Origin: an uncultured Pseudomonadales bacterium
Lineage (GTDB): Bacteria; Patescibacteriota; Microgenomatia; UBA1400; PJMF01
Length of the DNA: 64,000 bases
Direction: 5' to 3'
Assembly: GCA_964393205.1 (NCBI GenBank)
Contig: CAYMSV010000001.1
Coordinates: 103,440-167,439 of the forward strand
Shown here: in pieces, positions 28,369 through 47,245 of the stretch
How the letters are laid out: the number at the start of each line of letters is the position of its first letter
Position numbering within the stretch: the first letter of the stretch is position 1
Position numbers and translations under genes: made by a program
The notes under the pieces: generated by a model
What the model was told of the DNA's origin: nothing
Databases searched by the model: none
What the model saw: only the letters and a program-made list of their open reading frames with translations

Positions 28369-28442
28369 TGGGTATGCTTGGAATCGAACCAAGGACCTCA
28401 GTCTTATCAGGACTGCGCTCTAACCAACTGAGCTACACACCC
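28369..28442 (-). tRNA. tRNA-Ile (anticodon GAT)
   Basis: Hand-folded: GGGTGTG acceptor (one G-U), D-arm GCTCAGTTGGTTAGAGC, anticodon arm CAGTC-CTGATAA-GACTG, T-arm CTTGG-TTCGATT-CCAAG, discriminator A; no encoded CCA. Confidence 0.85.
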
Positions 28443-28488
28443 ATTTATTTATTAAATTTACTTTAACAAAGCCATATTTTAGCACAAA

Positions 28489-31098
28489 TCAAGCTTTTAC
28501 CAAATCAAGCTTTTTCTTCGTCCAATCTAATTTAATTTTGTCACCAGCCTGAATTTTGTTTTTAATCATTTGGCTAGCTAGCTCATCTAAGATCTCTTTT
28601 TGAATGAGGCGCTTTAGTGGTCTGGCTCCAAAAACGTGATCATAGCCAGTTTCAGCTAAATGTTCGATTAATTGTTCACTAAATTCTAATTTGATTTCTT
28701 GTTCAGCTAGGCGGTTAGCAACTAGATCAAGTTGCAGTTGTACAATCTCTTTAATTTCTTTTTTATCTAGACTTTGGAATATAATAATATCATCTAATCT
28801 ATTCAAAAACTCTGGGCGAAAATGCACCTTTAGCAAACCATCTAAAGCCTTCTTTTGTTCAACTGGATCACTACTGGTTTCGCTAATAATTTGACTACCC
28901 AAATTGGAAGTCATAATGATAATACTGTTTTTAAAATTGACAGTACGACCTTTGCTATCAGTCAAATGACCTTCATCCAAAACCTGTAGAAGAATATTAA
29001 ATACTTCGCTATGAGCTTTTTCAATTTCATCTAGTAAAACTATAGTATAGGGATGGCGACGAATAGCTTCTGTTAATTGACCACCTTCTTCATAGCCAAC
29101 ATAACCTGGTGGCGAGCCGATGAGGCGAGCCACGCTATGTTTTTCCATATATTCACTCATATCGATGCGGGTAATCAGACGCTCATCATTAAAAAGTTGT
29201 TCGGCAAGAGCCTTGGCTAATTCTGTTTTACCCACACCAGTGGGTCCAAGGAACAAGAAGCTACCAATAGGTCTGCCCTCTTCGCTAATGCCAGCACGAT
29301 TACGACGAATAGCGCCAGCCACTGCTTCAATAGCTTGATTTTGCCCAACAACTCTTTGACCAAGTTCTTTCTCCAAATTTATGAGTTTTTCGGTTTCTTC
29401 AGTAAGCATGCGACTAACCGGAATGCCCGTCCATTTAGAAACTATAGTGGCAATATCGCTTTCATCAATTTCTTCTTTGAGCAATCTTTGTGTTGGGTCA
29501 ATATCAGCCATTTTCGCTTGAGCTTCTTTTACTTTTTTCTCCAACTGAGGAATTTCTCCATAATTAATGGCGGCGGCTCGTTCTAGATCATAATTTCGTT
29601 CAGCTTTTTTTGCTTCTTCGCGAAGTTCATCTAATTTTCGACTGTATTTTTTAATTGAATCTAAAATTTCTTTTTCTTTGCGCCAGCGCAGCTCCAAGCT
29701 TTTGTATTCTTCTTTTAGTTCTCCAATTTGTTTTTCAATGTTTTTTAAGCGATCCTCACTTTTTTGACCTCTTTCTTTTTTAAGTGATTCTTTTTCAATT
29801 TCTAATTGGCGAATTTCTCGCTCCAATTGATCAATACTGTTGGGTTTACTATCAATTTCGATGCGTAGTGCTGAGGCAGCTTCATCCATTAAATCGATAG
29901 CTTTATCTGGCAAGAAACGATCACTAATATATCGATGAGAAAGTTTAACTGCAGCAATAATAGCGCCATCTAAAATGCGCACTCCGTGATGTGCTTCATA
30001 TTTACTTTTAATACCTCGTAGAATAGAAATAGCATCATCTACTGAAGGTTCTTCAACCATTACTGGTTGAAAGCGTCTTTCTAGCGCACTGTCTTTTTCA
30101 ACATATTGGCGATACTCTTTTAGAGTGGTTGCACCAATGGTGCGCAAGGTACCACGAGCTAGCGCTGGTTTAAGTAAGTTGCCAGCATCAGTTGATCCTT
30201 CACTGGCTCCGGCGCCAACAATACTGTGTAATTCATCGATAAAGAGTATGATCTGTCCTTCACTCTTTTCAATTTCTTTGATTACGGCTTTTAATCGATC
30301 TTCAAACTCTCCACGATATTTAGCTCCGGCTATCAGAGAACCCATATCTAAAGCTAAGATTCTTTTATTTTTTAGTGCTTCTGGGACATCATCATCAATA
30401 ATTTTTTTGGCCAAACCTTCGACAATGGCAGTTTTACCAGTGCCTGGTTCGCCAACCAAAACCGGATTGTTTTTGGTGCGACGCGACAAAATTTGAGTAA
30501 TACGACGAATTTCTTCATTGCGACCAATGACAGGATCAATTTTTCCTGAACGAGCTAGACTGGTAAAATCTAAGCAATATTTTTCTAGAGCCTGATATTT
30601 GCCCTCGGGTTCTGGATCAGTAACTCGTTGTTGACCACGTACTGTTTTTAAAGTTTGCACGACTTGTTTGGGATCAAGTTCGGTAAGTTGGACAACTTTT
30701 TTTTGGTTTAATAGTGCCAAAAACAAATGCTCAGTACTAATGTATTCGTCTTTAAGTTTTACTGCTTCTGTTTCTGCTTGACTTAAAACCTTACTTAGTT
30801 CTGGGGAAGCGTAAGCTTGAGTGGGCGCATCTGTGCTAGGTAATTGTTTAAGTTCTTTTCTAATTAAAGAAGCAATTGTTTCTGGATTTTTATCTAATTG
30901 TTCAAGCAAATTAGGAATGATGCCTCCTACTTGTTCAACTAGGGCTAATAATAGGTGCCAAATTTCGATTTGACTATGTTTGAGTTTGCCAGCCAGCTGC
31001 ATAGCGTCTTGTACAGCTTCACTGGCTTTGGTGGTATAGCGATCAAAGTTCATAAGTATTCTTTCAAGTTTATTAAAGGCTTTAGTGTTTATAAGCAA
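28489..31098 (-). CDS. clpB: Chaperone ClpB (Hsp104 family disaggregase)
   Basis: Clp N-domain, two AAA+ modules (GEPGTGKTA and GPTGVGKTE Walker A) with long middle coiled-coil; 869 aa. Confidence 0.95.
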
Positions 31099-31138
31099 TA
31101 TTATTTTAGCGCGCTTGAAATATTTTGCATAGAGTCAA

Positions 31139-31165
31139 TTAGCAGACTAGAAAGGACTCTGCTAA
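31139..31165 (-). promoter_or_regulatory. CIRCE-like inverted repeat (9-N9-9) about 50 nt upstream of clpB; candidate HrcA-type heat-shock operator
   Basis: Plus strand TTAGCAGAC-TAGAAAGGA-CTCTGCTAA (embedded in a perfect 10-bp IR AATTAGCAGA...TCTGCTAATT at 31137-31167); same half-site family as the lon site. Confidence 0.5.
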
Positions 31166-31286
31166 TTAACTAAAAGTTGATTTTTACTTGATACTTCTTA
31201 TATATTTTGATACATTTTGATAGATTAAAACAATAAAAATATTGATTTTAACTCATCACTAATAAAAAATACAAAAAAATTAATTT

Positions 31287-31640
31287 TTATTTACCATAAC
31301 AAACATGAAAAAAATCTGCTATATCTTCGTAAATTTTTTCAATTTCTGAATCTGTAAGATCTTCATTGTTTTTTTCTGCAGAGCGAAGATTTTTATTTGA
31401 TTTTGACCTAGAATCTTCTTTGATCTTAGTAATAATAGTTTTTATAGCAAATTCTCTCAATTCGAAATCATAGGCAAAAACCTTTTGCATGGACTCATTA
31501 AAGCTATGAAGATAACTAAGAAGAGCTTTTAAGTCTTGTGGCGAATCTGATGAAAGTAATTTTTTAATAAGAGCTTGCGGGCCAATTTTGGCATGTTTTT
31601 CTCTTAATTCTTTTCCTCTTTTTTCTCTTTCTTTAGACAT
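31287..31640 (-). CDS. Hypothetical protein (117 aa), charged/helical
   Basis: ORF between 16S and clpB, no recognisable motif. Confidence 0.35.
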   Translation of the reverse strand: MSKEREKRGKELREKHAKIGPQALIKKLLSSDSPQDLKALLSYLHSFNESMQKVFAYDFELREFAIKTIITKIKEDSRSKSNKNLRSAEKNNEDLTDSEIEKIYEDIADFFHVCYGK

Positions 31641-31714
31641 AAATTTGTATCGCTTTTATCTATATTTAAGTATATAGAACACAGTCAATTATAACATGTA
31701 GGCTTTTTTAATTA

Positions 31715-31750
31715 AAAAAACGAGCCCAGTAGCTCGTTTTATTTTTTGAT
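31715..31750 (-). terminator. Rho-independent terminator hairpin (bidirectional) about 150 nt downstream of the 16S 3' end
   Basis: AAACGAGC-CCAGTA-GCTCGTTT stem-loop (about 31718-31739) flanked by A-run and T-run. Confidence 0.5.
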
Positions 31751-31884
31751 TAAAATTGAATTAATTAACAGTAAATACAGTGACAGAAAGCGACCTGGGC
31801 ACCTATGTCCACAGGATTTTAGTTTTTCGTCTAAGTTGCCTTAGACGGGAGAAGGAGGTCGTGAAAACTCCTACCCATTCTCCT

Positions 31885-33375
31885 TAGAAAGGAGGTGATC
31901 CATCGGCACCTTCCAGTACCGATACCTTGTTACGACTTAACCCTCATCGCTAATCTCGCCGTAGAAGGGCCGTTCTCTTGCGAGTTACGGTCACCCGCTT
32001 CGGGCGCTACTAACTTTGCTGGTTTGACGGGCAGTGTGTACAAGGAGCGAGAACGTATTCACCGCAACCTGCTGATTTGCGATTACTACCGATTCCGACT
32101 TCATGCTCTCGAATTGCAGAGAACAATCTGAACTGAGGGGCCGTTTAAAGGATTGGCTCCGCCTTGCGGCTTCGCTACCCGTTGTCGGCTCCATTGTAGG
32201 ATGTGTGTTGCCCTGGATGTAAGGGTCATGCTGACTTGACGTCGTCCTCTCCTTCCTCCCTGCAAAAAGCAAGGCAGTCTCCCGTGACACTTGTAACACG
32301 GGATAAGGGTTGCGCTCGTTACCACACTTAAGTGGACGCCTCACGACACGAGCTGACGACAGCCATGCAACACCTGTGTAACACTCTCGAAGAAGATCTA
32401 GTTTCCTAGACCGTGCAGTTACATGTCAAACCCAGGTAAGGTATTTCGCTTTGTATCGAATTAAACCACATGCTCCACCGGTTGTGCGCTCCCCCGTCAA
32501 TTCCTTTGAGTTTTAACCTTGCGGTCGTAATCCCCAGGCGCCTTGCTTAACGCGTTAGCTTACATCACTCAATTCAAAGAATCAAGCAATTAGCAAGGAT
32601 CGTTTACGGTCTGGACTACAGGGGTCTCTAATCCCTTTTGCTACCCAAACTTTCGTCCCTGAGCGTCAGTTGTACTCCAGGAGCTCGCCTTCGCGAATGG
32701 TGTTCCTCTCGATATCTACGGATTTCACCCCTCCACCGAGAATTCCAGCTCCCCCTAGTAAACTCAATTCTATCAGTATTTCAACCTGTATCTGGAGTTG
32801 AGCTCCAGTATTAAAGTCAAAACTTAATAAAACGCCGACGGACGCTTTACGCCCAATAAATCCGGATAATGCTTGCACCCTACGTATTACCGAGGCTTCT
32901 GGCACGTAGTTAGCAGGTGCTTTCTAGCAGGGTACCCTCAAAAATTGTTCCCCTGCCACAGTGGTTTACACTCCGAAGAGCGTCTTCCCACACGCGGTGT
33001 CGCTGCGTCAGGCTTTCGCCCATTGCGCAATATTCCCAGTTGCTGCCACCCGTAGGTGTAGGTTCCGTGTCTCAGTAACCTTGTGGCCGGTCGTGCTCTC
33101 ACACCGGCTACCTGTCATCGGCTTGGTGAGCTATTACCTCACCAACTACCTGATAGGACATAGGCCTCTCCCTAAGCGCCCGAAGGCTTTGATCCGGAGA
33201 TCACATGCGGTATTACCCAATCTTTCGACTGGCTATTCCCCACTTAGGGGTAAGTTCCTATGTTGTACTCACCCGTCTGCTACTTGTGTTAGTCCGAAGA
33301 CTAACTTACCGTTCAACTTGCATGCTTAAAGCACACCGCCAGCATTCATCCTGAGCCAGGATCAAACTCTTAAAA
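31885..33375 (-). rRNA. rrs: 16S ribosomal RNA (complete, about 1.49 kb), not linked to 23S/5S
   Basis: Minus-strand 5' end AGAGTTTGATCCTGGCTCAG (RC at 33351-33370), 3' end AAGTCGTAACAAGGTA...GGATCACCTCCTTTCT (RC at about 31887-31936); the internal 515F site is divergent (see findings). ORFs predicted inside this interval are spurious. Confidence 0.9.
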
Positions 33376-33604
33376 AAGTTTGATTTGCTCTATAAAAAAA
33401 TAAAAGTCAAATTGACGAGATGCAATCTTTAGTTTTAAAAACCAAAGATAAAATCTCTCTTGCACTTTCTATCACTATATTTGCTGTTAAAAAAATAGCT
33501 GTCTTTACTTGTTAAAGATCAAAAAAACTTCTTTTTAAGCAAAAAAAAGAAAGGAGAAAACTTCTAGCTTTCTCTAATCATCTCTCTTTGCCTGAAGTGG
33601 GAGT

Positions 33605-33688: not shown

Positions 33689-34522
33689 GTGCTTTTTACA
33701 AAGCCAACTTTTTCTTTTATACTAGAAGCAATGCCTGCAATCAAACAGGCGATCGTTATGACTTTAACGGTCGTCTTTGCTTACGTATTTTTGCAAACGC
33801 CAGAATTATCGGTTTATTCTTTGCAATTTTTTGCTGTACTTTGTCTCGCCTATTGGTGGCTACAGAAAAAACAAGGAAAACACTTTTTTTATCTCTTCAA
33901 TGAGCAGGGCTCCAGCAACGTCTTAGTTTTAAATTTAGCTTTTTTAATTTTGATTGGCAACACTCAGGGTTTAGCCTCTGCCTTTTTTGCTCTAAGCTTT
34001 ATCCAGCTTTTTTTTGTAACCTTAGCACTTGAAAATCGTTTAGCAATTTTATTGTCTTTAGAATTATTTTTATTTTATTTGGGTTTAGCTTTGAATCGTT
34101 ATGGTTTAATTTTGTCTAACAACATAAGTATGACTGAGTTAAATAATTTAATAGCTATTCCTTTAGTAACTATTTTTTATTTATTCGGCAAAGTTCAATA
34201 CCAACGTTTGCACTATCATTCTTTGTTGCTTGATAGTGAAAAACAGGAAAAGATTCAGGCTCAAGCAGACGATCAAGCTGTATCGATTTTTATTAATAAT
34301 TTACTAGATAAGCGTTTGCCGATGTTGGAATACTTGCTTACCTTTCCCCAAAAAAACATGGTAATGATTCAGGCCGAAATGCAATCTTTAAAAAAAGATT
34401 TAAATAGTTTGATGAAAGAAATTAATCACAAAACTGTTAAAAATGAGTCGGCAATTCAAGAAAAAATATTAATAGAAGAAGAAGCAGAAGTTTTAATCAA
34501 AGCTATTGATGATGAAATTTAG
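33689..34522 (+). CDS. Membrane protein (about 5 TM) with C-terminal cytoplasmic coiled coil; first gene of a secreted-protein operon
   Basis: Hydrophobic helices through about aa 170, then K/E-rich heptad-like segment; overlaps next gene by 17 nt. Confidence 0.45.
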   Translation: MLFTKPTFSFILEAMPAIKQAIVMTLTVVFAYVFLQTPELSVYSLQFFAVLCLAYWWLQKKQGKHFFYLFNEQGSSNVLVLNLAFLILIGNTQGLASAFFALSFIQLFFVTLALENRLAILLSLELFLFYLGLALNRYGLILSNNISMTELNNLIAIPLVTIFYLFGKVQYQRLHYHSLLLDSEKQEKIQAQADDQAVSIFINNLLDKRLPMLEYLLTFPQKNMVMIQAEMQSLKKDLNSLMKEINHKTVKNESAIQEKILIEEEAEVLIKAIDDEI

Positions 34523-35246
34523 CTCAATCTTTTTACTGGTTTTTTTGTTTTCTTTTTTAAAGCCAGCAATGGTTAGGGCTGATAATATGAGTTCAAACTC
34601 TTATTATTTGCAATTTGGCAATTTTAATATGGGGAGTGGCGAGTTTGATACTGGTAGTCAATTTGGTTTGACTTATACCTTGGGCGGCACTGCTATTGGT
34701 CCCTATGGCGAATATGGTACTAGCCAGTATTTTATAGGTAGTGGTTTTCAATATATTTATCAAATTAGGCAATTTAGTTTTAGTTTATCCAAACTCAGCA
34801 TTGATCTTGGTGAGTTAAATCCAGGGTTTTTTGCTAGTGATAGTCATACTGTAACTATTAATACTGGTAGTGCCGGTGGTTATCAGGTTTATGTTTTTGA
34901 AAATCGTCCTCTAACTCATGTCAGTCAGCCAACTGAACAAATTCCCAACACCACATGTAACACTGGTTGTACAAAAAGTTTAGCAGGTATTTGGGACAAC
35001 CCAATTTATGATGGTTTTGGCTACCATGTGACTGGTGACAATACACCGAGTGATTTTATTAATAGTAGTTACTTTCGTCCCTTTGCTGATAATAGTTTAG
35101 GTGAAGACATGGAGCTGATTATGAGTAGTAATAATGTGGCTTTTGATGAAACAGCCACTATGACTTATCAAGCAGCTCCATCAGTAATGCAAGCGGCTGG
35201 TGATTATCAAACTTTTGTGGTTTTTGTAGCAGTACCAGGTTATTAA
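34506..35246 (+). CDS. Secreted protein, small member (246 aa) of a paralogous pair (with 36346..37800)
   Basis: Sec signal peptide (…PAMVRA|DN); G/T/S/Y-rich beta-type composition; C-terminal motif YQAAPSVMQAAGDYQTFVVFVAVPGY shared with the 484-aa protein. Confidence 0.6.
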   Translation: MMMKFSSIFLLVFLFSFLKPAMVRADNMSSNSYYLQFGNFNMGSGEFDTGSQFGLTYTLGGTAIGPYGEYGTSQYFIGSGFQYIYQIRQFSFSLSKLSIDLGELNPGFFASDSHTVTINTGSAGGYQVYVFENRPLTHVSQPTEQIPNTTCNTGCTKSLAGIWDNPIYDGFGYHVTGDNTPSDFINSSYFRPFADNSLGEDMELIMSSNNVAFDETATMTYQAAPSVMQAAGDYQTFVVFVAVPGY

Positions 35247-35247
35247 A

Positions 35248-36291
35248 ATGATTAAAAAAATAATTTTTACTCTTATTTTTTTTGTAAGCTTATTGTCAGG
35301 CAAGCTGTCTGTAGTTAGAGCTCAAGGAATTGATGCTTTATCCGTAAATATTAATCCACCAGTTTCCTATCTTTATATAAAGCCTGGCGCTGGTATTGGG
35401 GCACCAATTAATTTGGAAAATCAGGGCCGTTATACTATTAGAGTAACTCCACAATTAGTTGATTTCCGAACCCATAAACAAACCGGGCAAATTATTTTAG
35501 AACAAACTAGTGAGTTTAAACACTTATCGATTGCAGGCAATCAGGAGCGTTGGGGCGAAGAATTTATCATTAAGCCAGGAGAAAGTTATACTCTACCCCT
35601 GACAATTGCTGTGCCAGCAGATTTTCCTCAAGAGGAATATCATTTATCAGTATTATTTAATGTCGAACAAATGCTTTTTTCTGATTATGAAAAAAGCAGT
35701 AACACTATTTTGTCTGGTATTGTTGCTAGTCATTTAGTAGTGATGGTTAGCTTAGATGAAGCTGATCGTAGTCAAATTGTGATTAAAGATTTTCAATTAC
35801 CTAAGATAGTGGATAGTTTAATGGGAATTAATTTTAAGATTTGGGTAAAAAATATTGGTTTAAATGCCAGTCCAATTCGGGGTAAACTAAGTGTTAGTCA
35901 CTGGCCATCTCCTGAAAAAGAAGTTTATGAATTTTATCCAGATATGGTTTTGGCTGATAGTCAGCGACAAGTACGAGGAATGAGTGAAGGAAATTTGGCT
36001 CGTTTACAAGAGTTGACTGAGCAAGAGGAGATTATATTGGCCAATAATGAAGATTATTTTGAATTACAAAGTTTATTGGTGCAAGAAACTTTAATTAGTG
36101 ATTTTCGCTACGAGAAAGCTTTTTTATTAGGTGCTTATGATTTTCATCTGGAAATTGGAGATGAAGAGCAAACTGAAAGAGTGATAGCTCTACCCTTCTC
36201 AATTCTTATAGCCCTTATTTCATTGCCAATTTTGTCTCGTTTATTAATTATTCTAATAAAGAAACTAGATTTTAAACATAAAAAAAACTGA
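35248..36291 (+). CDS. Cell-surface protein: signal peptide + Ig-like ectodomain + C-terminal TM anchor with basic tail (DUF916/DUF3324-like architecture)
   Basis: Signal VVRA|QG; LSVNINPPVSYLYIKPGAGIGAPINLENQGRYTIRVTPQLVDF resembles the N-terminal pattern of DUF916 proteins; C-terminal LPFSILIALISLPILSRLLIILIKK + KHKKN. Confidence 0.5.
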   Translation: MIKKIIFTLIFFVSLLSGKLSVVRAQGIDALSVNINPPVSYLYIKPGAGIGAPINLENQGRYTIRVTPQLVDFRTHKQTGQIILEQTSEFKHLSIAGNQERWGEEFIIKPGESYTLPLTIAVPADFPQEEYHLSVLFNVEQMLFSDYEKSSNTILSGIVASHLVVMVSLDEADRSQIVIKDFQLPKIVDSLMGINFKIWVKNIGLNASPIRGKLSVSHWPSPEKEVYEFYPDMVLADSQRQVRGMSEGNLARLQELTEQEEIILANNEDYFELQSLLVQETLISDFRYEKAFLLGAYDFHLEIGDEEQTERVIALPFSILIALISLPILSRLLIILIKKLDFKHKKN

Positions 36292-36345
36292 GTTAAACTG
36301 CCCTTGACTCTCTGGCAAAAAAAATTATAAACTAGATTACATACT

Positions 36346-37800
36346 ATGCAAATAAAAAATCGTTTTTTGTTTTTATTGTCCCTTTTTATAATTATAAGCT
36401 CATTTTTTATCGGAATTCGCCCTAATCAGATAAAAGCAGCTAGTTTAAACAATGTTTCAACCCTGTTGAATAATGCGCGTTTCTCTTTTAGGAGTGCTCT
36501 CGAAGGTGCTCAAACTCTTGGTTCTTCTTTAATTACTATTGATGTAACTAACTATCCATCGACTTCGGTTTTGCAACTACAATCTGGTGATGTATTAAGA
36601 ATTGGTGGCGTTAATAATTACAATGTAGCCACTACCATCGATGACGCTACTGATGACAAAGTCAGTTTAACTTCCGGTTTATTAACTGGCGACATAGCAG
36701 ATGAAACCGCCCTAATTTCTACCCAGTCTTCAACTTTGACGGTTAAATTAACAACAGTGAGTGCACTGGAGAATGGAACTATTCGTATTTTGGTTCCGGC
36801 TACAAGTGCTACGGCAACTAATCGAGATGGATTGCCTGATGATGATGGATTTGATTTTGGAGGTAGCGCAAACGCAGCTATTACTTGTCCAGCCACCTAT
36901 CCAGCTGGATTTACAGGATTTACTGGAACGAGTAGTTATGCCAATGGCTCAGTTGAGATAGATGGTATTGATTATCATGTTTTTGACTGTGCTTACACGG
37001 GCACTGGAGCAGTTAGTGCTGCTTTTGATGGGACAACTTATCCAGCTTTTACAATTGCTAATTTAATTAATCCTTCGCCGAGTAGTTCGAGCGTTTTAGG
37101 AGAAGCAGATACTTATACGATCATAATTAGGCATTTGGCGAGTGACGATACCATAATTGATGAAACTTTAGCTAAAGTAGGAGTGATAGATGCAGTTCGT
37201 GTTTCGGCTACTATTCTACCTCAATTAACTTTTACCATTGAGGGCGTAGCATCCGGTCAAAGTAAATGTGGCATCACTACAGATGCTACTACTACACCTT
37301 TGGCCGTTCCTTTTGGAGATATTACCATTGGTACTTTCTCTGATTTGGCTCAGGTTTTAACTGTAACTACTAACGCGGCCAATGGCTATCAAGTAACAGC
37401 GGCAGAAAGTGATCAATTGGGTAAGGATGGACAGGCTTGTGCTGGTGATGGTTCGGCCGATACTGCTTGTATCGTTGATGCTAATGTTACTGGCATGAGC
37501 AATACTGTTTCAGCAGATTGGGCTGTAGTTACTGGAGATCAATATGGTTTTGGTTTCACTATAGGTTCGGCCACTGCTGGAATAACCAGACCTTTTTACT
37601 ACAATGAATCCGGCAGAACTTACAGTGCTCGCCATTTCTCAGATTTAGCTGAATCCACTGATCCTGAAACGATTTTCTCTCGCTCTACAGCAGCTCTGGA
37701 AGACATAGTAGATGTTTGTTATCGACTAACACCCTCTGCACTCAATGTAGCTGGAGACTATGAGAACTACATTGTGTACATAGCAACAGCTACTTTTTAA
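36346..37800 (+). CDS. Secreted protein, large member (484 aa) of the paralogous pair; Thr/Ala/Gly-rich
   Basis: Signal peptide (…QIKA|AS); C-terminal about 200 aa alignable with the 246-aa protein (…NGYQVTAAESD…C…C…GFGFTIG…YRLTPSALNVAGDYENYIVYIATATF). Confidence 0.6.
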   Translation: MQIKNRFLFLLSLFIIISSFFIGIRPNQIKAASLNNVSTLLNNARFSFRSALEGAQTLGSSLITIDVTNYPSTSVLQLQSGDVLRIGGVNNYNVATTIDDATDDKVSLTSGLLTGDIADETALISTQSSTLTVKLTTVSALENGTIRILVPATSATATNRDGLPDDDGFDFGGSANAAITCPATYPAGFTGFTGTSSYANGSVEIDGIDYHVFDCAYTGTGAVSAAFDGTTYPAFTIANLINPSPSSSSVLGEADTYTIIIRHLASDDTIIDETLAKVGVIDAVRVSATILPQLTFTIEGVASGQSKCGITTDATTTPLAVPFGDITIGTFSDLAQVLTVTTNAANGYQVTAAESDQLGKDGQACAGDGSADTACIVDANVTGMSNTVSADWAVVTGDQYGFGFTIGSATAGITRPFYYNESGRTYSARHFSDLAESTDPETIFSRSTAALEDIVDVCYRLTPSALNVAGDYENYIVYIATATF

Positions 37801-37851
37801 GATTTAAAATTTAATTAATAATAAGAAACAGTTTAAAAATCAAGGAACAGA

Positions 37852-38847
37852 ATGCAACTAACCTGCCCAAAAAAGAATATTAAGATTCTTATTTTTCTTT
37901 TAAGTTTATTTATATTTACTTTCAGTTTGAAATCGGTGGCTATCGCCCAGGAGGCTTTGTCCTTGACAGTGAAGCCGGTCAGAATTGGAGATGATAATTC
38001 TTTACTTCTAAGTCCTGGTGAAAAAAAACAAATTCAAGTGAAGGTAGAAAACAACTCTCAAATGGACTTACAAATAGAGAGTCAAGTTTTAGATTTTATT
38101 GTGGCTCAAGACGGAACAACCCCGATTCCTGTTACAGAAGAACAAGATAACCGCTGGAGTTTAGCTAGTTGGATGACTCTGGCACCAGCAAGTAATTTTT
38201 TACAAGCTGGTGGGTCAGCAACCGTTAATGTTTTAATTGAAGTGCCCGAGGATGCTCTTCCTGGGGGTCGTTATGCTATGGTGTTACACAGTCCTGATGT
38301 AGGAGGAGTTGAAGACCAAACTGGAGCTGGTATTGCTCAGCGAGCAGGTACTTTGATTTATGTGATAATTGATGGTCCAATTAATGAATTAGCCTATGTT
38401 AACTTTTTTAGAGTGCCTGGATTTTTAGAAAAAGGACCAGTGCCTATGGAAATTAAGATTAGAAACGAATCAGACGTTCACATTACACCAACCCCGCAAA
38501 TTAAAGTTTTTAACATTTTTGGTAAAGAAATAGATAGATTGGTACTAGATCAGAAAAATGTTTTTCCTTTAACCGAGCGAGATTTTAGTGATGTTTGGCA
38601 GAAAAAATGGGGTTTTGGTCCCTACACTCTTAGGTTAGAAGCTGTCTACGGATTTCAAGGACAGGTGGCAAGTGCTGAAGCAGTAATCTGGTTAATACCA
38701 GTAACAATTATTATAATTGTTTTGCTTAGTATTTTACTGATTGTGGCTATAGTTTTGGCAATTAAGAAGAAACAAAGTCAGAAGGCACCATTTAAAGAGA
38801 TGCCAGAAGCTGAAACTCAGCCAATGGATGATCAAGATCAACAATAA
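37852..38847 (+). CDS. Cell-surface protein, paralog of 35248..36291 (signal peptide + Ig-like ectodomain + C-terminal TM anchor, DUF916/DUF3324-like)
   Basis: Signal AIA|QE; LSLTVKPVRIGDDNSLLLSPGEKKQIQVKVENNSQMDLQIESQVLDF parallels the motif in the 347-aa protein; C-terminal VTIIIIVLLSILLIVAIVLAIKKKQSQK. Confidence 0.5.
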   Translation: MQLTCPKKNIKILIFLLSLFIFTFSLKSVAIAQEALSLTVKPVRIGDDNSLLLSPGEKKQIQVKVENNSQMDLQIESQVLDFIVAQDGTTPIPVTEEQDNRWSLASWMTLAPASNFLQAGGSATVNVLIEVPEDALPGGRYAMVLHSPDVGGVEDQTGAGIAQRAGTLIYVIIDGPINELAYVNFFRVPGFLEKGPVPMEIKIRNESDVHITPTPQIKVFNIFGKEIDRLVLDQKNVFPLTERDFSDVWQKKWGFGPYTLRLEAVYGFQGQVASAEAVIWLIPVTIIIIVLLSILLIVAIVLAIKKKQSQKAPFKEMPEAETQPMDDQDQQ

Positions 38848-41035
38848 AAAACGATTATTGAGATTTAAAAAAAATAAAAGCTTTCTTATTACTCATCAAT
38901 TATGTAGAAAGCTTTTATTTTTTCTTTTACTATTCTTTATATTTTCAAAAGCAAGTTTTGCGCAAACTGTAGATCCTGTAACTAGAAATGTAATAGTGTC
39001 AGCTAGTATTCCTGATACGATTCCTCCCTCAACACCAATTTTGATTACTCCAGAAGATGGAGCTAACGTTGATACGGCCCGTCCGGTTTTTCAGTGGTAT
39101 GAGAGTACAGACAATAAGGGCATGTCTCATTACGAATTTCGTCTAGATGGAAGATCTTGGTTTAACAATATTCCCCTATCTAGTTTTGCTAATGAAGATT
39201 ACAGTTTAAACTATGATGCCGGATCGGGAATTTATACTTTTGTAGCTAATCAAGATTTAAGTCATGGTACTCATCGTTGGCAAATTATTGCTTATGATCA
39301 GCTAAACAATAGTGCTGCCTCTACTATTTGGAATTTTAATGTTTTTGTTAATGAACCGCAGTTTACAATTAGGAAAATTGCGGATGTTAATACTAGTATA
39401 AGCTCCACCAATCCCTCAAGTGTTCCTGAGGAACCCATTACTCTTTTTTCAACTGATCCATTTGCTAATGAACCTTGGATTATAGCTCTAGGAGCTCCTA
39501 ATTTAGAGGTAGATTTAACAGTTATCATACCTAACAGTGCTGACCAATCTTTTAGCCAAGAGACCGATAGTAGTGGAAATTGGAGTTTACAGTTAGGTAT
39601 TTTACCTCGAGATGAGATAGTACGATTAGACTTTACTATTACTGACGTAGTTGGACACAAAAGCTATATTCGTGAGCTTTATATTATTATTAATCGGCAT
39701 TATTGGCCCCCCACCGCAATACCAACAGCGACAATTACCGAAACTCCTCCAACAACCGCTCCAACTTCTTTTATCTCTCCCAGTATTACTCCCAGTATCA
39801 CCACTTCTATTACACCAACTCAAGATCCAACTGTTACTCCGTCTATTACTCAAGCGAGCCCAGCGCCCGTAACTCCATTGCCCTCACCAGGTATTAGGGT
39901 GCCAATTATTCCACCAAAGGAAGTAGTTCATGATTTAGTTGAAGACGTTAAAAGAAGTTTGCCTGATCGAATAGCCAACTTAATGACTGATTTTAGTGGA
40001 TCGCCTATATGGAAAGCTGTAAATAATTTTTCAGCCATAGCTTTAGCTTTGCTATTGCCAATTGCCAGTTATTTGTTTGTGTTATTTAAGTTTTATCAAT
40101 CTTTTTCAATAAAAACCTTTCAAGAGGTTCTGATGGCCTTATGGCCTTGGTCTAAAAAAAGAAAAAATTTAGTATTTGAGTATCGCAATAGTCAGGCTGC
40201 TCCTTTGGTGAAAGTGGAACTAATAGACGCTGAAACGAATGAAGTTTTAGATTGGCAAATAACTAACTATTTAGGACGATTTATTAACTTTGATTGGCCG
40301 ACGGGACGTTCTCTCAAATTGAGAGTGAAAGATCATAATTTCTATTTTCCAATAGGTGGTGGTAAGCCACTTTATTTATCTTGGCACAATTTTTATCAGG
40401 GAGAAACTTTTAATTATCAAGAAGCCTCAAAAAATAAAAAAGTTGCTGCAAACATATTTGCTGGTCGACGAGCTCTAGCGATCCCTACGCTTTTGGCTCA
40501 AGGCAAACATAACCTACCCCTAATTGAGCGCCTCAGGGTTGTTTTGGCCTATTTAGTGACCTATCCAAGCTGGTTTTTTCTACTAAGTTTGTTTCCTGTG
40601 TTAATTTTAGTATTGAGGTATCCAAGCTTTTTGAATTATTTAGCACTTGTTTATTATTTTATAGTAGCATTCTTTAAACACGCTAATCGTTTAGGAAAAA
40701 AGACTTGGCAGTTTAGAGTATTAACCAGCAATGGCCACAAAGTTAATCAAAACCTAATACTTATCACTAATGATTTAATAAAAGGATATTCTCAAGCTCA
40801 AATAGTAAATATCAATGAGGCTTTGAGTCCTAAATTAAAATTTGTGAAAAATGAATTTATTTTTAGCTTACAAACAAAGGATTATGCCTTGTGGGATAGT
40901 CAGCGTGCAATTAGTGAAATGGAATATAGTCTTAGAAGAGAATCAATTGGTGAGTTTAAATTACATCTAATTGAAAGTTCTAATCACAGCCTTAGGATTT
41001 TGCAACCCCTTTGTCAATTATTGCACCAGCAATAA
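38828..41035 (+). CDS. Large envelope protein: signal peptide, FN3/Ig-like domain, Pro/Thr/Ser/Ile-rich linker, CarbopepD_reg-like beta-sandwich, C-terminal polytopic membrane domain
   Basis: Signal SFA|QT; PVFQWYESTDNKGMSHYEFRLDG (FN3-like); linker TITETPPTTAPTSFISPSITPSITTSITPTQDPTVTPSITQASPAPVTPLPSPG; LIDAETNEVLDWQITNYLGRFINFDWPTGRSLKLRV; at least 4 TM helices at C-terminus. Confidence 0.5.
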   Translation: MIKINNKKRLLRFKKNKSFLITHQLCRKLLFFLLLFFIFSKASFAQTVDPVTRNVIVSASIPDTIPPSTPILITPEDGANVDTARPVFQWYESTDNKGMSHYEFRLDGRSWFNNIPLSSFANEDYSLNYDAGSGIYTFVANQDLSHGTHRWQIIAYDQLNNSAASTIWNFNVFVNEPQFTIRKIADVNTSISSTNPSSVPEEPITLFSTDPFANEPWIIALGAPNLEVDLTVIIPNSADQSFSQETDSSGNWSLQLGILPRDEIVRLDFTITDVVGHKSYIRELYIIINRHYWPPTAIPTATITETPPTTAPTSFISPSITPSITTSITPTQDPTVTPSITQASPAPVTPLPSPGIRVPIIPPKEVVHDLVEDVKRSLPDRIANLMTDFSGSPIWKAVNNFSAIALALLLPIASYLFVLFKFYQSFSIKTFQEVLMALWPWSKKRKNLVFEYRNSQAAPLVKVELIDAETNEVLDWQITNYLGRFINFDWPTGRSLKLRVKDHNFYFPIGGGKPLYLSWHNFYQGETFNYQEASKNKKVAANIFAGRRALAIPTLLAQGKHNLPLIERLRVVLAYLVTYPSWFFLLSLFPVLILVLRYPSFLNYLALVYYFIVAFFKHANRLGKKTWQFRVLTSNGHKVNQNLILITNDLIKGYSQAQIVNINEALSPKLKFVKNEFIFSLQTKDYALWDSQRAISEMEYSLRRESIGEFKLHLIESSNHSLRILQPLCQLLHQQ

Positions 41036-42124: not shown

Positions 42125-43108
42125 TTAGAAAATAAAGTTACGTTTAGCCAAAACCTTAACTCTTTTTTGATAAGCTAATGGATCATAGGTATAAAATTTG
42201 GGTAATAGAGCTTGGTAACTTGGATTCATTTTTTGAGCTTTTGCAATATCCTCAATGGCTAATTTTCCATAATATAGGAGACTGGGATTATATTGGTGGT
42301 TTTTTAAATATTTTAAAACTTGCTCAAAACCTTCTAGGTAAACAAAGCTTTTGCTGAAGCCTCCTGGCAAACTAGTGTCTGTTAAGCCTCTTTTATTTTT
42401 TAGAGCATAAGACCAAGATTTTTGAGAATCTTGTAAATATTCGTAGAAAAAAGCGTAGACCGTTTTAAAATCTTTTTTTTGAGCTACTTGAGCGCCCAAA
42501 TAGGATAAAGCAGTTTTAAAAATCAATTGTTGTTCGCTGTTTAAATATTGATGAATAACAGCCAATCCTTCTTCGGTACGCAAATGATTGCTAAATCCAT
42601 AGTGTTTTTTACGACGGTACCAGTCTTGTTTCTCATAATTTTCTTGACGCAGGATATGGGTGCCTATTTCATGATCTAGAGTATTACTTAATTTTTGTTT
42701 AGAAAAAGCAACAGGCAATCTAACTTTAATCGTATTATTTTTGAAATTAACAGCAAATCGACTAGTAAAATCTTTATCAAAGACTAGCTGATATTTTTTA
42801 TTCAATGAATATTCAGCTAAATATTTCTCAATGATTTGAGATGTAGTTTTAGTATCTAATTTTTCATTTGATAGTTGGTTTTTTTGAAAAAGGTTTTCTT
42901 TTTTAGCCTGTTTAATAATTTTTTTAGCTAAACGAGAATAGCGCCAACGAGACCTACCATAAAAATCCAAATCGCTTTGTTTTATTGTTGTTTGATATTT
43001 AAATTGAGGGTTGTAGTTAGTATTATTGGCAAAAAATTTTTCTTTTTCTGCTAACAAATTAACTGGTACTAATTCACTAAGTTTAAGCATTTTGACTATT
43101 AGGATCAA
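42125..43108 (-). CDS. DUF1704 / QEGLA-motif protein (putative zinc metallopeptidase; 'flavohemoglobin expression-modulating QEGLA motif protein' family)
   Basis: Contains …LRTEEGLAVIHQYL… (QEGLA-like motif) and a potential metal-binding LDHEIGTH segment; 26-nt overlap with the upstream ATP-grasp gene. Confidence 0.55.
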   Translation of the reverse strand: MILIVKMLKLSELVPVNLLAEKEKFFANNTNYNPQFKYQTTIKQSDLDFYGRSRWRYSRLAKKIIKQAKKENLFQKNQLSNEKLDTKTTSQIIEKYLAEYSLNKKYQLVFDKDFTSRFAVNFKNNTIKVRLPVAFSKQKLSNTLDHEIGTHILRQENYEKQDWYRRKKHYGFSNHLRTEEGLAVIHQYLNSEQQLIFKTALSYLGAQVAQKKDFKTVYAFFYEYLQDSQKSWSYALKNKRGLTDTSLPGGFSKSFVYLEGFEQVLKYLKNHQYNPSLLYYGKLAIEDIAKAQKMNPSYQALLPKFYTYDPLAYQKRVKVLAKRNFIF

Positions 43109-44381
43109 TTAGAAAACCATCTAAATCTTGGCGGCCAAGTTCTAGCTTATGTTGACGATGATTTAGTTTCTTACTAACTAACATGGTGGTTTTAACAATG
43201 TGACCTTTTAATTTAAATTTAACTTCCACGACAGGCAAACTACCTTCTTCTTTTTCTTTTTGAAACCACAATAAATCTTCTAGGTCTAATAAACCTAGTT
43301 CACCAGCCAAATCACGAGCAATAGCACTATGAAGTCGTCCAGTATTAATAAAAGCTGAAGTGGAAATTCCTTGTTTTTTTTCACCATACAGAATAATTTC
43401 TTCTCGCAAATTAATTTTAGTAATTTCATTTTTTATTTTAACTCGATTTGAAAAATCACTGGCAAATAAAGCCTGGGCAATTTTTACTCCATGTTCGGGA
43501 TTAATGACATTTAGACCTTCTACTCTTTCTAATCGACGACGCATGCCGGCACGATTGGCAGCTTGAATTGATAATCCTGGTGTGGCATTAAGTTCAACCA
43601 CCATTGGACCTTTAGTCTTATGTAAGAAAATGTCGATTCCAGAAAAGGCCAGATCTGCGACTTCGCTGGCTTGGACGGCGGTTAATAAGGCTTTGTACCA
43701 ATTGGGAATAGTAATGCCGTTAAGCTTTTTTTTGGTTCCTGGTAAATATTGAATATTTTGTTTTTTATGAGCAACGGCATGAGTGGTAATACCACTAGCA
43801 ATATCAATTCCTACAGCAATTGCTCCCTGTGTAACATTAGCGCGACCCGCAGACTCTTCAGTAGGTAAACGTAACATGGCCATAACAGGTACACTGTTGA
43901 AAACAATAACTCTAATATCGGGTGTGCCCTTATAAGAATATTTTAATAACTTAGGATGAATTGGAATACGTTCTTCAATAATAACGTTATGATTGGTGCC
44001 GTGAATGCTATATTGTCCAGCCAAAATGTTTCTGCAATGTAATTTGATGTCGTCTTCATCCCACTTTTCTCCTAAAACATCTAACCAATACTGGCTATTA
44101 ACTTTATTTCTAAAGGCAATAACACCAGTGCCGGCATGACCATTAGTGGGTTTGATAACAAAATCACCCTCTAGTTTTTGCCAATTAAAATCATTAACGT
44201 CTTCATCGGTGCCTAAAATGCCATAGATTTCTGCAGAGGGAATATTATTGTCGTTTAATAATATTTTAGTGGCGTATTTAGAACGAGCGATAGCTTTAGC
44301 TTTACGAGAATTACGACTCACATATAAACTGTTGCGAGCATTGATGCCTAGGAGGTCGCTGGCTGTGGCTTGTTTAGTCAT
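43083..44381 (-). CDS. ATP-grasp ligase, RimK-like ('alpha-L-glutamate ligase-related protein' family)
   Basis: ATP-grasp elements (…FVIKPTNGHAGTGV…, …RLPTEESAGRANVTQGAIAVGID…, …MVVELNATPGLS…); 432 aa with extra C-terminal domain. Confidence 0.6.
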   Translation of the reverse strand: MTKQATASDLLGINARNSLYVSRNSRKAKAIARSKYATKILLNDNNIPSAEIYGILGTDEDVNDFNWQKLEGDFVIKPTNGHAGTGVIAFRNKVNSQYWLDVLGEKWDEDDIKLHCRNILAGQYSIHGTNHNVIIEERIPIHPKLLKYSYKGTPDIRVIVFNSVPVMAMLRLPTEESAGRANVTQGAIAVGIDIASGITTHAVAHKKQNIQYLPGTKKKLNGITIPNWYKALLTAVQASEVADLAFSGIDIFLHKTKGPMVVELNATPGLSIQAANRAGMRRRLERVEGLNVINPEHGVKIAQALFASDFSNRVKIKNEITKINLREEIILYGEKKQGISTSAFINTGRLHSAIARDLAGELGLLDLEDLLWFQKEKEEGSLPVVEVKFKLKGHIVKTTMLVSKKLNHRQHKLELGRQDLDGFLIDPNSQNA

Positions 44382-44393
44382 AGTTGACTTTTC

Positions 44394-45440
44394 TTATTCT
44401 TCTAGTCCTGAAAAATCATCAGTCATAAATTTTTTAAATTTTTGGGACTGACTTTTGTTACTAAGCAAGTCTTTGAAGCGAAAATATTCAAAGATTCTTA
44501 GTCCGGTGTAGCGACCGATAGCTAGATTAATCACTGTTACCAGTAGAATGGTTAATTCAGGTTTTAAAATAACAAATTTCCTGACGGTTTCATTATCTAC
44601 CAACAAAGTACCAACAATTGCCAATATCAATGTTTCAAAAGTTACGCTGAGAGCCTCTCCTCTGCTAGCAAACATTTGAGTGGTCATAAAGTTCTCAGTA
44701 AGCAAAATAATAATAAGCAATGGGAAGATGCTTACATTAAGCACTAAATCAATTTTGAATAAAGAACCAATAATCAATAAAAATAATATTGACATCGAGA
44801 CAATGAGTAGGAGCATAGCTGTTTTTGGCAAGAGTGGCATTTTTAAAAACTTTACTAGATATCTAGCTAAAGTTGCTGATAAAAGTACAGCTAAAAACAA
44901 AATAATGCCCGCTAGTAGACCAGTAGATACAAAAGCTACTGATAAAACTGCTGGAATATAAATACCAAAACCTTTAAAACCAATTACATGTCTAGCTAAG
45001 GCTACAATTGAAGCAATGACTGGAAAAATTAGCATAATTACTACTAAGCTAGTTGGTAAACCTTGAGCAACAGCAAGACGAATAGCTTTTTGTAGAAAAT
45101 TAGTTGGACTAAGTGGACCAATAGGATTTTCATCTAAATGTGCTGCTAAAACACTTTTTTGTCTGCCCGTAGTTTCAGTAATGTCTTCGTCAGTTTTTTG
45201 TTGAATTTTTTCTACTATTTCTGCTGATGGCGAGGATAATTTAACACTATCGCTTGCCTCTGCTTCTTCAGTTGCCTCTTCAATTACTTCTAAATTTTCT
45301 AGATCTTCTCCTTCAAATTGAATGGGATTAATGGTTTGAGCGTAAATTTTTTGCTGTTTTAGATTTGGCCAAAAAGCCAGAACAAGAAAGGCAAAAATAA
45401 AAATCAATAAATAAGTGGGTAAGATTTTTTTAAAATTCAT
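44394..45440 (-). CDS. Signal peptide + periplasmic segment + about 7 TM helices membrane protein (7TM family that is usually fused to an inactive transglutaminase)
   Basis: N-terminal signal, acidic about 100-aa extracytoplasmic region, then 6-7 TM helices; immediately upstream of ATP-grasp/DUF1704 pair. Confidence 0.4.
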   Translation of the reverse strand: MNFKKILPTYLLIFIFAFLVLAFWPNLKQQKIYAQTINPIQFEGEDLENLEVIEEATEEAEASDSVKLSSPSAEIVEKIQQKTDEDITETTGRQKSVLAAHLDENPIGPLSPTNFLQKAIRLAVAQGLPTSLVVIMLIFPVIASIVALARHVIGFKGFGIYIPAVLSVAFVSTGLLAGIILFLAVLLSATLARYLVKFLKMPLLPKTAMLLLIVSMSILFLLIIGSLFKIDLVLNVSIFPLLIIILLTENFMTTQMFASRGEALSVTFETLILAIVGTLLVDNETVRKFVILKPELTILLVTVINLAIGRYTGLRIFEYFRFKDLLSNKSQSQKFKKFMTDDFSGLEE

Positions 45441-45853: not shown

Positions 45854-47245
45854 TTATTGTAAAAGATTTTGCTCTCTTAGTCTAGTATGCTGCTTTTTGG
45901 CGAAACGATGGGCCTCATCTCTTAAACGAACAACTAGGTGAAGAGTTGGATGGTTGCTGGGCAACTTGATTTCAATGCTTCGCCACCCGTTATTGGGTTT
46001 TTCTTGATTTTTTGGACGAAGTAAAACTAACCGATCTGGATTTTTAACTACAGATACAATTGGACAATTGAAAAATTGAGGATTTTTTTGCCAAACACGC
46101 TGAGCACTGCGCAACTGTCCTTTACCTCCATCAATGACTATTAAATCTGGTCTACCCCACTCTGGGTGTTTTTGCCTGCGCAATAGTGCTTCTTGCAACA
46201 TAGCATAGTCGTTAGGAGTGGCCTGTTGACGAATTTTAAAGAATTTATACTCACTTTTTTCAGGCTGGCCATCAATAAAACAAACCATGGAAACAGTAGC
46301 TTGTTGTCCTTGAGTATTGCTAACATCATAAGCTTCTATGCGTTGAAAACGATATTTTAAATCAACTATGCCCTGCTGATGCATAATTTGGCGCAAGTGC
46401 ACCAATGCCTCTTCTTGGATTTTCTTGGTTAAATTGGGCAAGATTAAATCAGGTTTTAAACGATACTGTTCTTGAGTAATTTCATTAATTAAATCAATTT
46501 TATTTTTAATTTTTTGTGCTTCTTCAAAATTTTCAGATTTTGCCAAGTTTTTCATTTCTTGAGTCAATTGTTTAATCAAATTTTTATTTTGACCACGAAG
46601 AAGTAATATTAGTTGTTTAATATTATCTTGGTAAGATGATGAATCAATTTTATTGCAACAAGCTCCAGGACAAAGCTCTAGATGATAATAAAGGCAAGCT
46701 TTATTTTCTTTTTTGTTTTTTTTATTACACCAGGGAAAGATTTGTCTAGCTATTTTTAATAATTCATCAACTTTATAACTACTAGCAAAAGGACCTAAAA
46801 TGGCCATGGATTTTTGAAACTGTTTCTTTTTTAAATCAGTTTTTCGCAGTCGTAATAATTTTGGATAATCTTCTTGAGTAAAAAAAAGATAAAGTCGAGA
46901 TTTATCGTCTTTGAGTAGACTGTTGTAAAAAGGTTGATGAGCTCTAATTAATTCTGCCTCAATCAGCAGAGCTTGAAGTTCGCTTTTTAGAATCTGAGTT
47001 CTGACTGTCTTGGCCTTTTTGACTAATTGTTGGATCTTGGCTGAGAGCTGAGGATAGCGAGTGTAACTCTTGATCCTTTTCTTCAAGTTTTTGGCTTTGC
47101 CGACGTAAAGTACTTGTGAGTCTGCGTCCAAAAAGGAATAAACTCCCGGCTGCGAGGGCAAGGACGACAAGTCCTGCGCCCAGGAAAAGTATTTTTTCTG
47201 GGTTTTCAACAGTGATTTTTCCGAACCCTTTGACTTCGACTTCAT
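45854..47245 (-). CDS. uvrC: Excinuclease ABC subunit C, shortened (GIY-YIG + UvrBC-interaction + endonuclease domains; C-terminal (HhH)2 domain absent)
   Basis: PGVYSFLDADSQVLYVGKAKNLKKRIKSY (GIY-YIG), Cys-rich segment, FEEAQKIKNKI (UVR domain), RIEAYDVSNTQGQQATVSMVCF and VIDGGKGQL (RNase H-like endonuclease), ends RLRDEAHRFA…; start codon uncertain because of the overlap with the upstream gene. Confidence 0.8.
   Translation of the reverse strand: MKSKSKGSEKSLLKTQKKYFSWAQDLSSLPSQPGVYSFLDADSQVLYVGKAKNLKKRIKSYTRYPQLSAKIQQLVKKAKTVRTQILKSELQALLIEAELIRAHQPFYNSLLKDDKSRLYLFFTQEDYPKLLRLRKTDLKKKQFQKSMAILGPFASSYKVDELLKIARQIFPWCNKKNKKENKACLYYHLELCPGACCNKIDSSSYQDNIKQLILLLRGQNKNLIKQLTQEMKNLAKSENFEEAQKIKNKIDLINEITQEQYRLKPDLILPNLTKKIQEEALVHLRQIMHQQGIVDLKYRFQRIEAYDVSNTQGQQATVSMVCFIDGQPEKSEYKFFKIRQQATPNDYAMLQEALLRRQKHPEWGRPDLIVIDGGKGQLRSAQRVWQKNPQFFNCPIVSVVKNPDRLVLLRPKNQEKPNNGWRSIEIKLPSNHPTLHLVVRLRDEAHRFAKKQHTRLREQNLLQ

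Follow-up and report, generated by a model that had tools for sequence, protein, structure and literature searches.

[quoted passage not shown] The explanation that best accounts for the observations as a whole is that this is a functional Microgenomates 16S with an inherited compensatory swap that loss of the modification enzyme RsmG may have permitted, and we hold it to be very probable. The swap as such is already known: it is a published class-wide trait of the Microgenomates, and newer primers allow for it.

The 16S gene and its 522:527 pair

The gene is complete (31888..33377, minus strand; 1490 nt, no insertion) and is of the Microgenomates type. It matches RF00177 (bacterial SSU rRNA) over model positions 1-1533 of 1533 with 1434.6 bits against a gathering score of 50, a value in the range found for the 16S genes of other CPR organisms and for that of Karelsulcia. 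The anti-Shine-Dalgarno sequence at the 3' end, GGAUCACCUCCUUU, is intact. E. coli numbering was taken from alignment to rrsH (L121, NC_000913.3); G530, A1492 and A1493 are kept. The full-length model match, the intact anti-Shine-Dalgarno end and the covarying flanking helices all suggest a gene that looks functional.

The 515F primer target (E. coli 515-533) lies at 32887..32905 on the minus strand. Read from 32905 to 32887 it is GTGCCAGAAGCCTCGGTAA, against the canonical GTGCCAGCAGCCGCGGTAA, and so mismatches 515F at two primer positions, 8 and 13. A first-pass annotation of this DNA had reported the double change and put it at about 522 and 527; the change is read directly within the full-length gene, and alignment to rrsH makes the positions exact. 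They are A522 (32898, minus strand, by the E. coli alignment and the covariance model), where nearly all other organisms have C, and U527 (32893, minus strand), where a G is found elsewhere, the m7G527 site of RsmG in E. coli. Both belong to helix 18 and its 530 loop (E. coli 500-545), which the same two alignments place at 32875..32920 on the minus strand.

Are the two positions paired? In the Rfam covariance model the string '<<____>>' spans 521-522/527-528, with the consensus GC-AGCC-GC, and the model accepts the window's GA-AGCC-UC as two standard pairs, flagging neither as non-canonical. In published work (PMC5435857) G527:C522 appears as a cis Watson-Crick pair of helix 18. Since the model pairs 522 with 527 and the published pair is the same, the change from C:G to A:U, in which the purine and pyrimidine sides are exchanged, is compensatory. 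Among 67 distinct variants of helix 18, 36 have A:U at 522:527 and 31 have C:G, and in no variant are these two positions unpaired. In the same variants the outer helices are 99% paired, with many double changes, so that these are divergent but working rRNAs. The first-pass annotation had supposed that the two positions pair, had called the change compensatory on that condition and had proposed a covariance-model alignment as the check; the model, the published pair and the counts over the 67 variants bear out this reading.

Compared with canonical helix 18 (E. coli, T. thermophilus), the window has the same architecture, including the neighbouring pair G521:C528, the pairs 506:525 and 507:524, and the invariant G530 with its flanks. 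It departs from the canonical structure in having the reversed A:U in place of C522:m7G527, in having no G527 to methylate, and in having U.C at 505:526. The last difference is due to a U at position 505 (32915, minus strand; G in E. coli), which faces an unchanged C526 (32894) and so breaks one of the three pairs of the 505-507/524-526 pseudoknot. This G505U change was overlooked in the first-pass annotation, which had the changes at 522 and 527 right.

The U505 change bears on the view that positions 522 and 527 changed independently and form no pair, the loop having shifted its register around U505, for instance. Of the 109 A:U carriers among the matches listed, 91 also have U505, and with 505:526 broken the local fold may be somewhat unlike the one in E. 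coli. Against this, not one of 228 listed 16S sites has one change of the 522:527 pair without the other. The third change can moreover be separated from these two: A:U occurs with G505 in at least 18 genomes, and U505 occurs with C:G at 58 of 119 listed metagenome sites (at least 58 contigs). U505 was therefore rejected as an obligatory partner of the swap and is a trait separable from it, and independent, unpaired substitutions are very improbable.

The decoding-site core is kept in the window except for C1400, which is U (window 32033), an exception common to its relatives: U1400 is present in 36 of the 54 A:U relatives with a readable site, as against one of 14 C:G sequences. The Rfam consensus gives this decoding-site base in upper case, and the 1392R/1406R primer site includes it. 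The first-pass annotation, correct on the 530-loop swap, missed the change at 1400. A second C:G to A:U swap, again with the purine and pyrimidine sides exchanged, is found at C1409:G1491 (window 32024 and 31939) in helix 44, at the aminoglycoside pocket; this pair is less conserved, with lower-case letters in the Rfam consensus. Taken with U793G, these changes at conserved positions (G505U, C1400U and C1409:G1491 to A:U) are what one might expect of a degenerating or non-functional rRNA copy whose conserved positions are drifting. However, the covariance-model match is full length with a score in the range of other such genes, the anti-Shine-Dalgarno end is intact, the gene is the sole 16S in the window, and the changes are common to the whole clade and accompanied by covarying helices. 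We accordingly give the idea of a decaying copy very little credence.

Because the site lies within a gene, the question of chance becomes whether the variant is real. Four assemblies, from three JGI samples and one ENA sample, contain a 16S gene with 100% identity to that of the window over 1489-1490 nt, and a fifth, from ENA, is identical over the 1138 nt that it contains; the sources are JGI 3300033169, 3300033172 and 3300033173, and ENA ERZ27252285 and ERZ27252300. No fewer than 23 contigs, drawn from many samples, contain the small gene that lies directly downstream of the 16S. A sequencing error, assembly error or chimera that hides a canonical sequence has in its favor that 16S genes assembled from metagenomes are chimera-prone, and that one related contig (L244) looks chimeric or recombinant inside the 16S. 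That said, the same 1490-nt gene in independent JGI and ENA assemblies of at least five samples means that the variant is not an artefact. The identical 19-mer GTGCCAGAAGCCTCGGTAA is also present in at least 109 other genomes and at least 61 metagenome contigs, and it yields a Watson-Crick pair each time, which is not expected of two random errors. The probability of an artefact is thus practically negligible. The first-pass annotation had likewise argued for a functional rRNA over a sequencing error, and the full-length match, the intact 3' end and the recurrence of the identical gene agree with it.

The contig just mentioned, L244 (ENA ERZ27252305 k141_436541), has a 16S gene at 4247-5753 that differs from that of the window only in the first ~800 nt (125 differences). 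From ~800 nt of the 16S through ClpB it is near-identical to the window, and upstream it has no homology. Either the assembly is a chimera with its join in the conserved 16S, or the contig is a true recombinant; each half is of the Microgenomates type, and its 530 site is A:U.

The 16S gene is unlinked to 23S and 5S genes (window 28369-33377), no LSU or 5S rRNA being found anywhere in the 64-kb window. Downstream on the same strand are an ORF of 117 aa without a Pfam match, ClpB, a tRNA and Lon. On the plus strand, 33689-41035 holds six consecutive ORFs of 277, 246, 347, 484, 331 and 735 aa without Pfam matches. In L244 this six-ORF block is absent, and genes for MnmA, MATCAP and ATP-grasp proteins adjoin the 16S; since L244 may be chimeric, the block can be called variable between relatives at most. 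Further along the window, at 42125-45440 and 46959-49022 on the minus strand, there is a cluster encoding a MATCAP-like peptidase, a sugar-transfer-associated ATP-grasp protein, 7TM_transglut and transglutaminase-core proteins. It is broken by a holin-family protein and UvrC, and is unrelated to the 16S swap.

Distribution of the A:U pair

The window 16S is 98.3% identical to that of a Ca. Woesebacteria MAG (L098), and the 16S sequence places the organism in the Microgenomates/OP11 (GTDB class Microgenomatia) of the CPR. The wider occurrence of the A:U pair was surveyed by two scans. Both were pattern-driven, so that the figures come from the matches listed and rare other pair types may escape. 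The genome scan took one genome per species (GTDB) and used the pattern GTGCCAGDAGCCHCGGTAA, which admits every base but C at 522 combined with every base but G at 527. Among the matches listed, 109 have A..T, all in 16S context, and none of the 120 listed has a half-changed state or U:A, G:C or G:U at 522:527 in a 16S gene. Also among the matches listed were 11 with other base combinations, which were set aside as chance matches because all were in non-rRNA DNA. In the metagenome-contig scan both positions were left free but U505 was required; among the 119 16S sites listed, 61 are A:U, 58 are C:G, and nothing else was seen. A:U is the only alternative pair seen among the matches listed, a novel if modest observation.

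Among the matches listed, the carriers of A:U are mostly Microgenomates (Davies-, Woese-, Collier-, Curtiss-, Shapiro-, Blackburn-, Beckwith-, Levy- and Pacebacteria), with some others labelled Saccharibacteria, Berkelbacteria, Parcubacteria or WS2. One carrier among these matches is not a CPR organism at all: Ca. Karelsulcia muelleri PYRVIR, an insect endosymbiont of the Bacteroidota with a 156-kb genome, has the identical GTGCCAGAAGCCTCGGTAA in a full-length 16S gene (L078, NZ_CP094965.1, 1320-2856). It belongs to a phylum unrelated to that of the window organism and keeps G505, and its 16S lies in a normal 16S-tRNA-23S operon, unlike the unlinked gene of the window.

Record titles were not always in keeping with the 16S gene. 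They conflict with it for L029 (CP011212.1), L111, L009 and many loci titled 'uncultured Pseudomonadales/Gammaproteobacteria'. For instance, a genome titled TM6 GW2011_GWF2_28_16 has a 16S gene 91% identical to that of the window, with flanks of ~35% GC, and MAGs labelled Nanoarchaeia, Clostridia or Pseudomonadales have 16S genes of the Microgenomates type. Such genomes are probably mis-binned or mislabelled. It was also observed that 21 of the 63 full-length 16S genes from the two scans have 1.8-3.1 kb between the 27F and 1492R anchors (e.g. L012, L025, L036, L047, L051 and L187). These are large insertions of the kind reported for CPR, and the window gene is without any.

A neighbour-joining tree of the 63 full-length genes was computed with positions 505, 522 and 527 masked, and again with all of helix 18 masked. 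Both trees put the window in a monophyletic clade of 43 sequences, every one with A:U and U505, that includes Davies-, Woese-, Curtiss- and Pacebacteria. The remaining A:U carriers on the tree have G505 and are scattered among C:G sequences, Karelsulcia standing separately. This topology suggests that the A:U pair was inherited from the ancestor of the large Microgenomates clade and did not arise in the window organism. With helix 18 masked, parsimony gives five state changes of the pair, and four to five in all 40 bootstrap replicates; the count is a rough estimate, the 16S tree being rough, the sample pattern-driven and some MAG labels conflicting. By this estimate the pair would have changed state four to five times among the sampled lineages, Karelsulcia included, which is again novel in a modest way. 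The origin in Karelsulcia is certainly independent.

Primer sites and amplicon surveys

The first-pass annotation treated the swap as a trait of this organism and predicted poor amplification with 515F, as in many CPR. The trait is real, as are the two internal mismatches behind the prediction; in fact, however, the swap is a class-wide signature that primer design already exploits, and the escape of CPR from 515F/806R has been reported in the literature. According to the available text of Hu et al. 2024 (PMC10943839), almost every member of the Microgenomatia has mismatches to the V4 primers, which cover 1.2% of the class in SILVA and 0.5% in MiDAS, and the redesigned primer 515F_Mod adds degeneracy at primer positions 8, 11, 12, 13 and 18. 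Positions 8 (M, A/C) and 13 (K, G/T) correspond exactly to E. coli 522 and 527, and string comparison shows that the window site matches 515F_Mod (GTGYCAGMAGBNKCGGTVA) perfectly. The window site is the same Microgenomatia/Patescibacteria variant that 515F_Mod / V4-CPR and V4-EXT target, with nothing material different. V4-EXT, from a 2026 follow-up (PMC13271367), retains these degeneracies, and in digital PCR, as given in the available text of that paper, it yielded Patescibacteria counts from 3-fold (groundwater) to 14-fold (surface water) above those of standard primers. In the available text of both papers the changes are treated as primer mismatches, and the base pairing and the RsmG target at 527 are not discussed.

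The other primer sites give a mixed picture. The 806R target, ATTAGAGACCCCTGTAGTCC (32613..32632, minus strand), has one mismatch to 806R, a G at E. coli 793 (window 32626), and matches 806R_Mod perfectly. The 27F site is canonical, as first read. The 1492R site had been called canonical too but is AAGTCGTAACAAGGTATCGGTA, with two mismatches at E. coli 1508 and 1510; these fall where the 5' end of the primer binds, in the covarying stem of helix 45. In the EUB338 / 341F region the target (E. coli 338-355; window 33029-33046, approximate) is ACACCTACGGGTGGCAGCAA. There the pair 340:349 is A:U in place of U:A, and an A stands at 357; the FISH probe in common use for bacteria and the forward primer for V3 therefore mismatch as well. 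Two 515F mismatches and one 806R mismatch mean that standard V4 amplicon surveys count too few of these organisms. Organisms of the window type are nearly invisible to 515F/806R, for which redesigned primers now exist.

RsmG, streptomycin and a proposed origin of the swap

In ordinary bacteria RsmG methylates G527 to m7G527, and the methyl group shares a pocket with uS12, beside beta-methylthio-Asp89. A uridine at 527 cannot carry this modification, so that the swap removes the very G that RsmG methylates. The rsmG gene is present in 97.7% of non-CPR genomes and in 8.5% of 505 CPR genomes (MBE 2025; overall percentages, not by class). No rsmG (GidB family), rpsL or rimO was found among the 46 ORFs scanned in the 64-kb window, which is too small to conclude absence. 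We infer a link between the swap and rsmG loss, which would be novel, if modestly so. A search of open-access text found no paper that explicitly calls the swap compensatory or connects it with RsmG, and the exact GTGCCAGAAGCCTCGGTAA had no match there; the same literature gave nothing usable on rsmG in Sulcia.

The mechanism that we propose is as follows. A522:U527 closes the 523-526 segment as C522:G527 did, so that helix 18 retains both this pair and its pseudoknot geometry, and the loop at the decoding site is still able to fold. Once RsmG was lost there would be no methylation to keep, and the base at 527 would then be unconstrained, with pairing alone under constraint. In AT-rich genomes (GC is ~35% in this one) a constraint on pairing only could lead, by drift or by selection, to A:U. 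Many CPR lineages without rsmG keep C:G, so that the loss would be permissive at most. Moreover, C:G to A:U requires two transversions by way of a mismatch, and pure neutral drift fits such a route awkwardly. This route, and the lack of U:A, G:C and G:U among the matches listed, hint that the identity of the bases at 522:527 matters, beyond pairing alone.

Could the bases have been selected as an intrinsic resistance? The swap would alter the streptomycin pocket (helix 18, uS12, m7G527) and might shield the cell from aminoglycosides made by neighbours or a host. Both 522 and 527 are changed, and streptomycin-resistance rrs alleles have substitutions within E. coli 522-527. The known clinical and laboratory resistance mutations of the 530 loop each alter one base and make pairing weaker; those at 522 break the pair, whereas the swap keeps it. 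The window has in common with 530-loop rrs mutants and with rsmG (gidB) loss mutants the same nucleotides and pocket beside uS12, and in both cases m7G527 is removed. Loss of m7G527 gives low-level streptomycin resistance, in synergy with uS12 mutations, and 530-loop rrs mutations are classic sites of streptomycin resistance (Finken 1993, as given in a citing paper). The recurrence of the same swap four to five times, with A:U alone among the matches listed, hints that specific bases, and not just a pair, were selected, and 1409:1491 in the decoding site is A:U as well. Against a role in resistance, CPR organisms without rsmG already lack m7G527 and would not need the swap, and AT mutation pressure at ~35% GC also favors C:G to A:U. 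Unlike the resistance mutants, moreover, the window has a state that is ancient and clade-wide. Selection for resistance seems unlikely, and we retain the inherited swap, perhaps permitted by loss of RsmG, as the preferred explanation.

The residual question is why A:U alone is found, and whether the swap tracks RsmG loss. A tentative answer, which we consider possible but rather doubtful, is that A:U is the only tolerated alternative and has been reached repeatedly and independently (four to five changes, the insect endosymbiont included), specifically in reduced-genome lineages without RsmG. The swap would then be an rRNA-side footprint of losing a near-universal modification. What lends the case its interest is that the pair is among the most conserved in rRNA, that it carries a near-universal methylation beside the uS12/streptomycin site, and that one specific alternative pair has cleanly taken its place in several lineages with reduced genomes. 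Should the link with RsmG hold, an rRNA base and its modification enzyme would have been lost together, and uncultured CPR would be the subject of a testable antibiotic prediction: an altered response to streptomycin, or altered decoding fidelity, would be predicted in a large part of the CPR.
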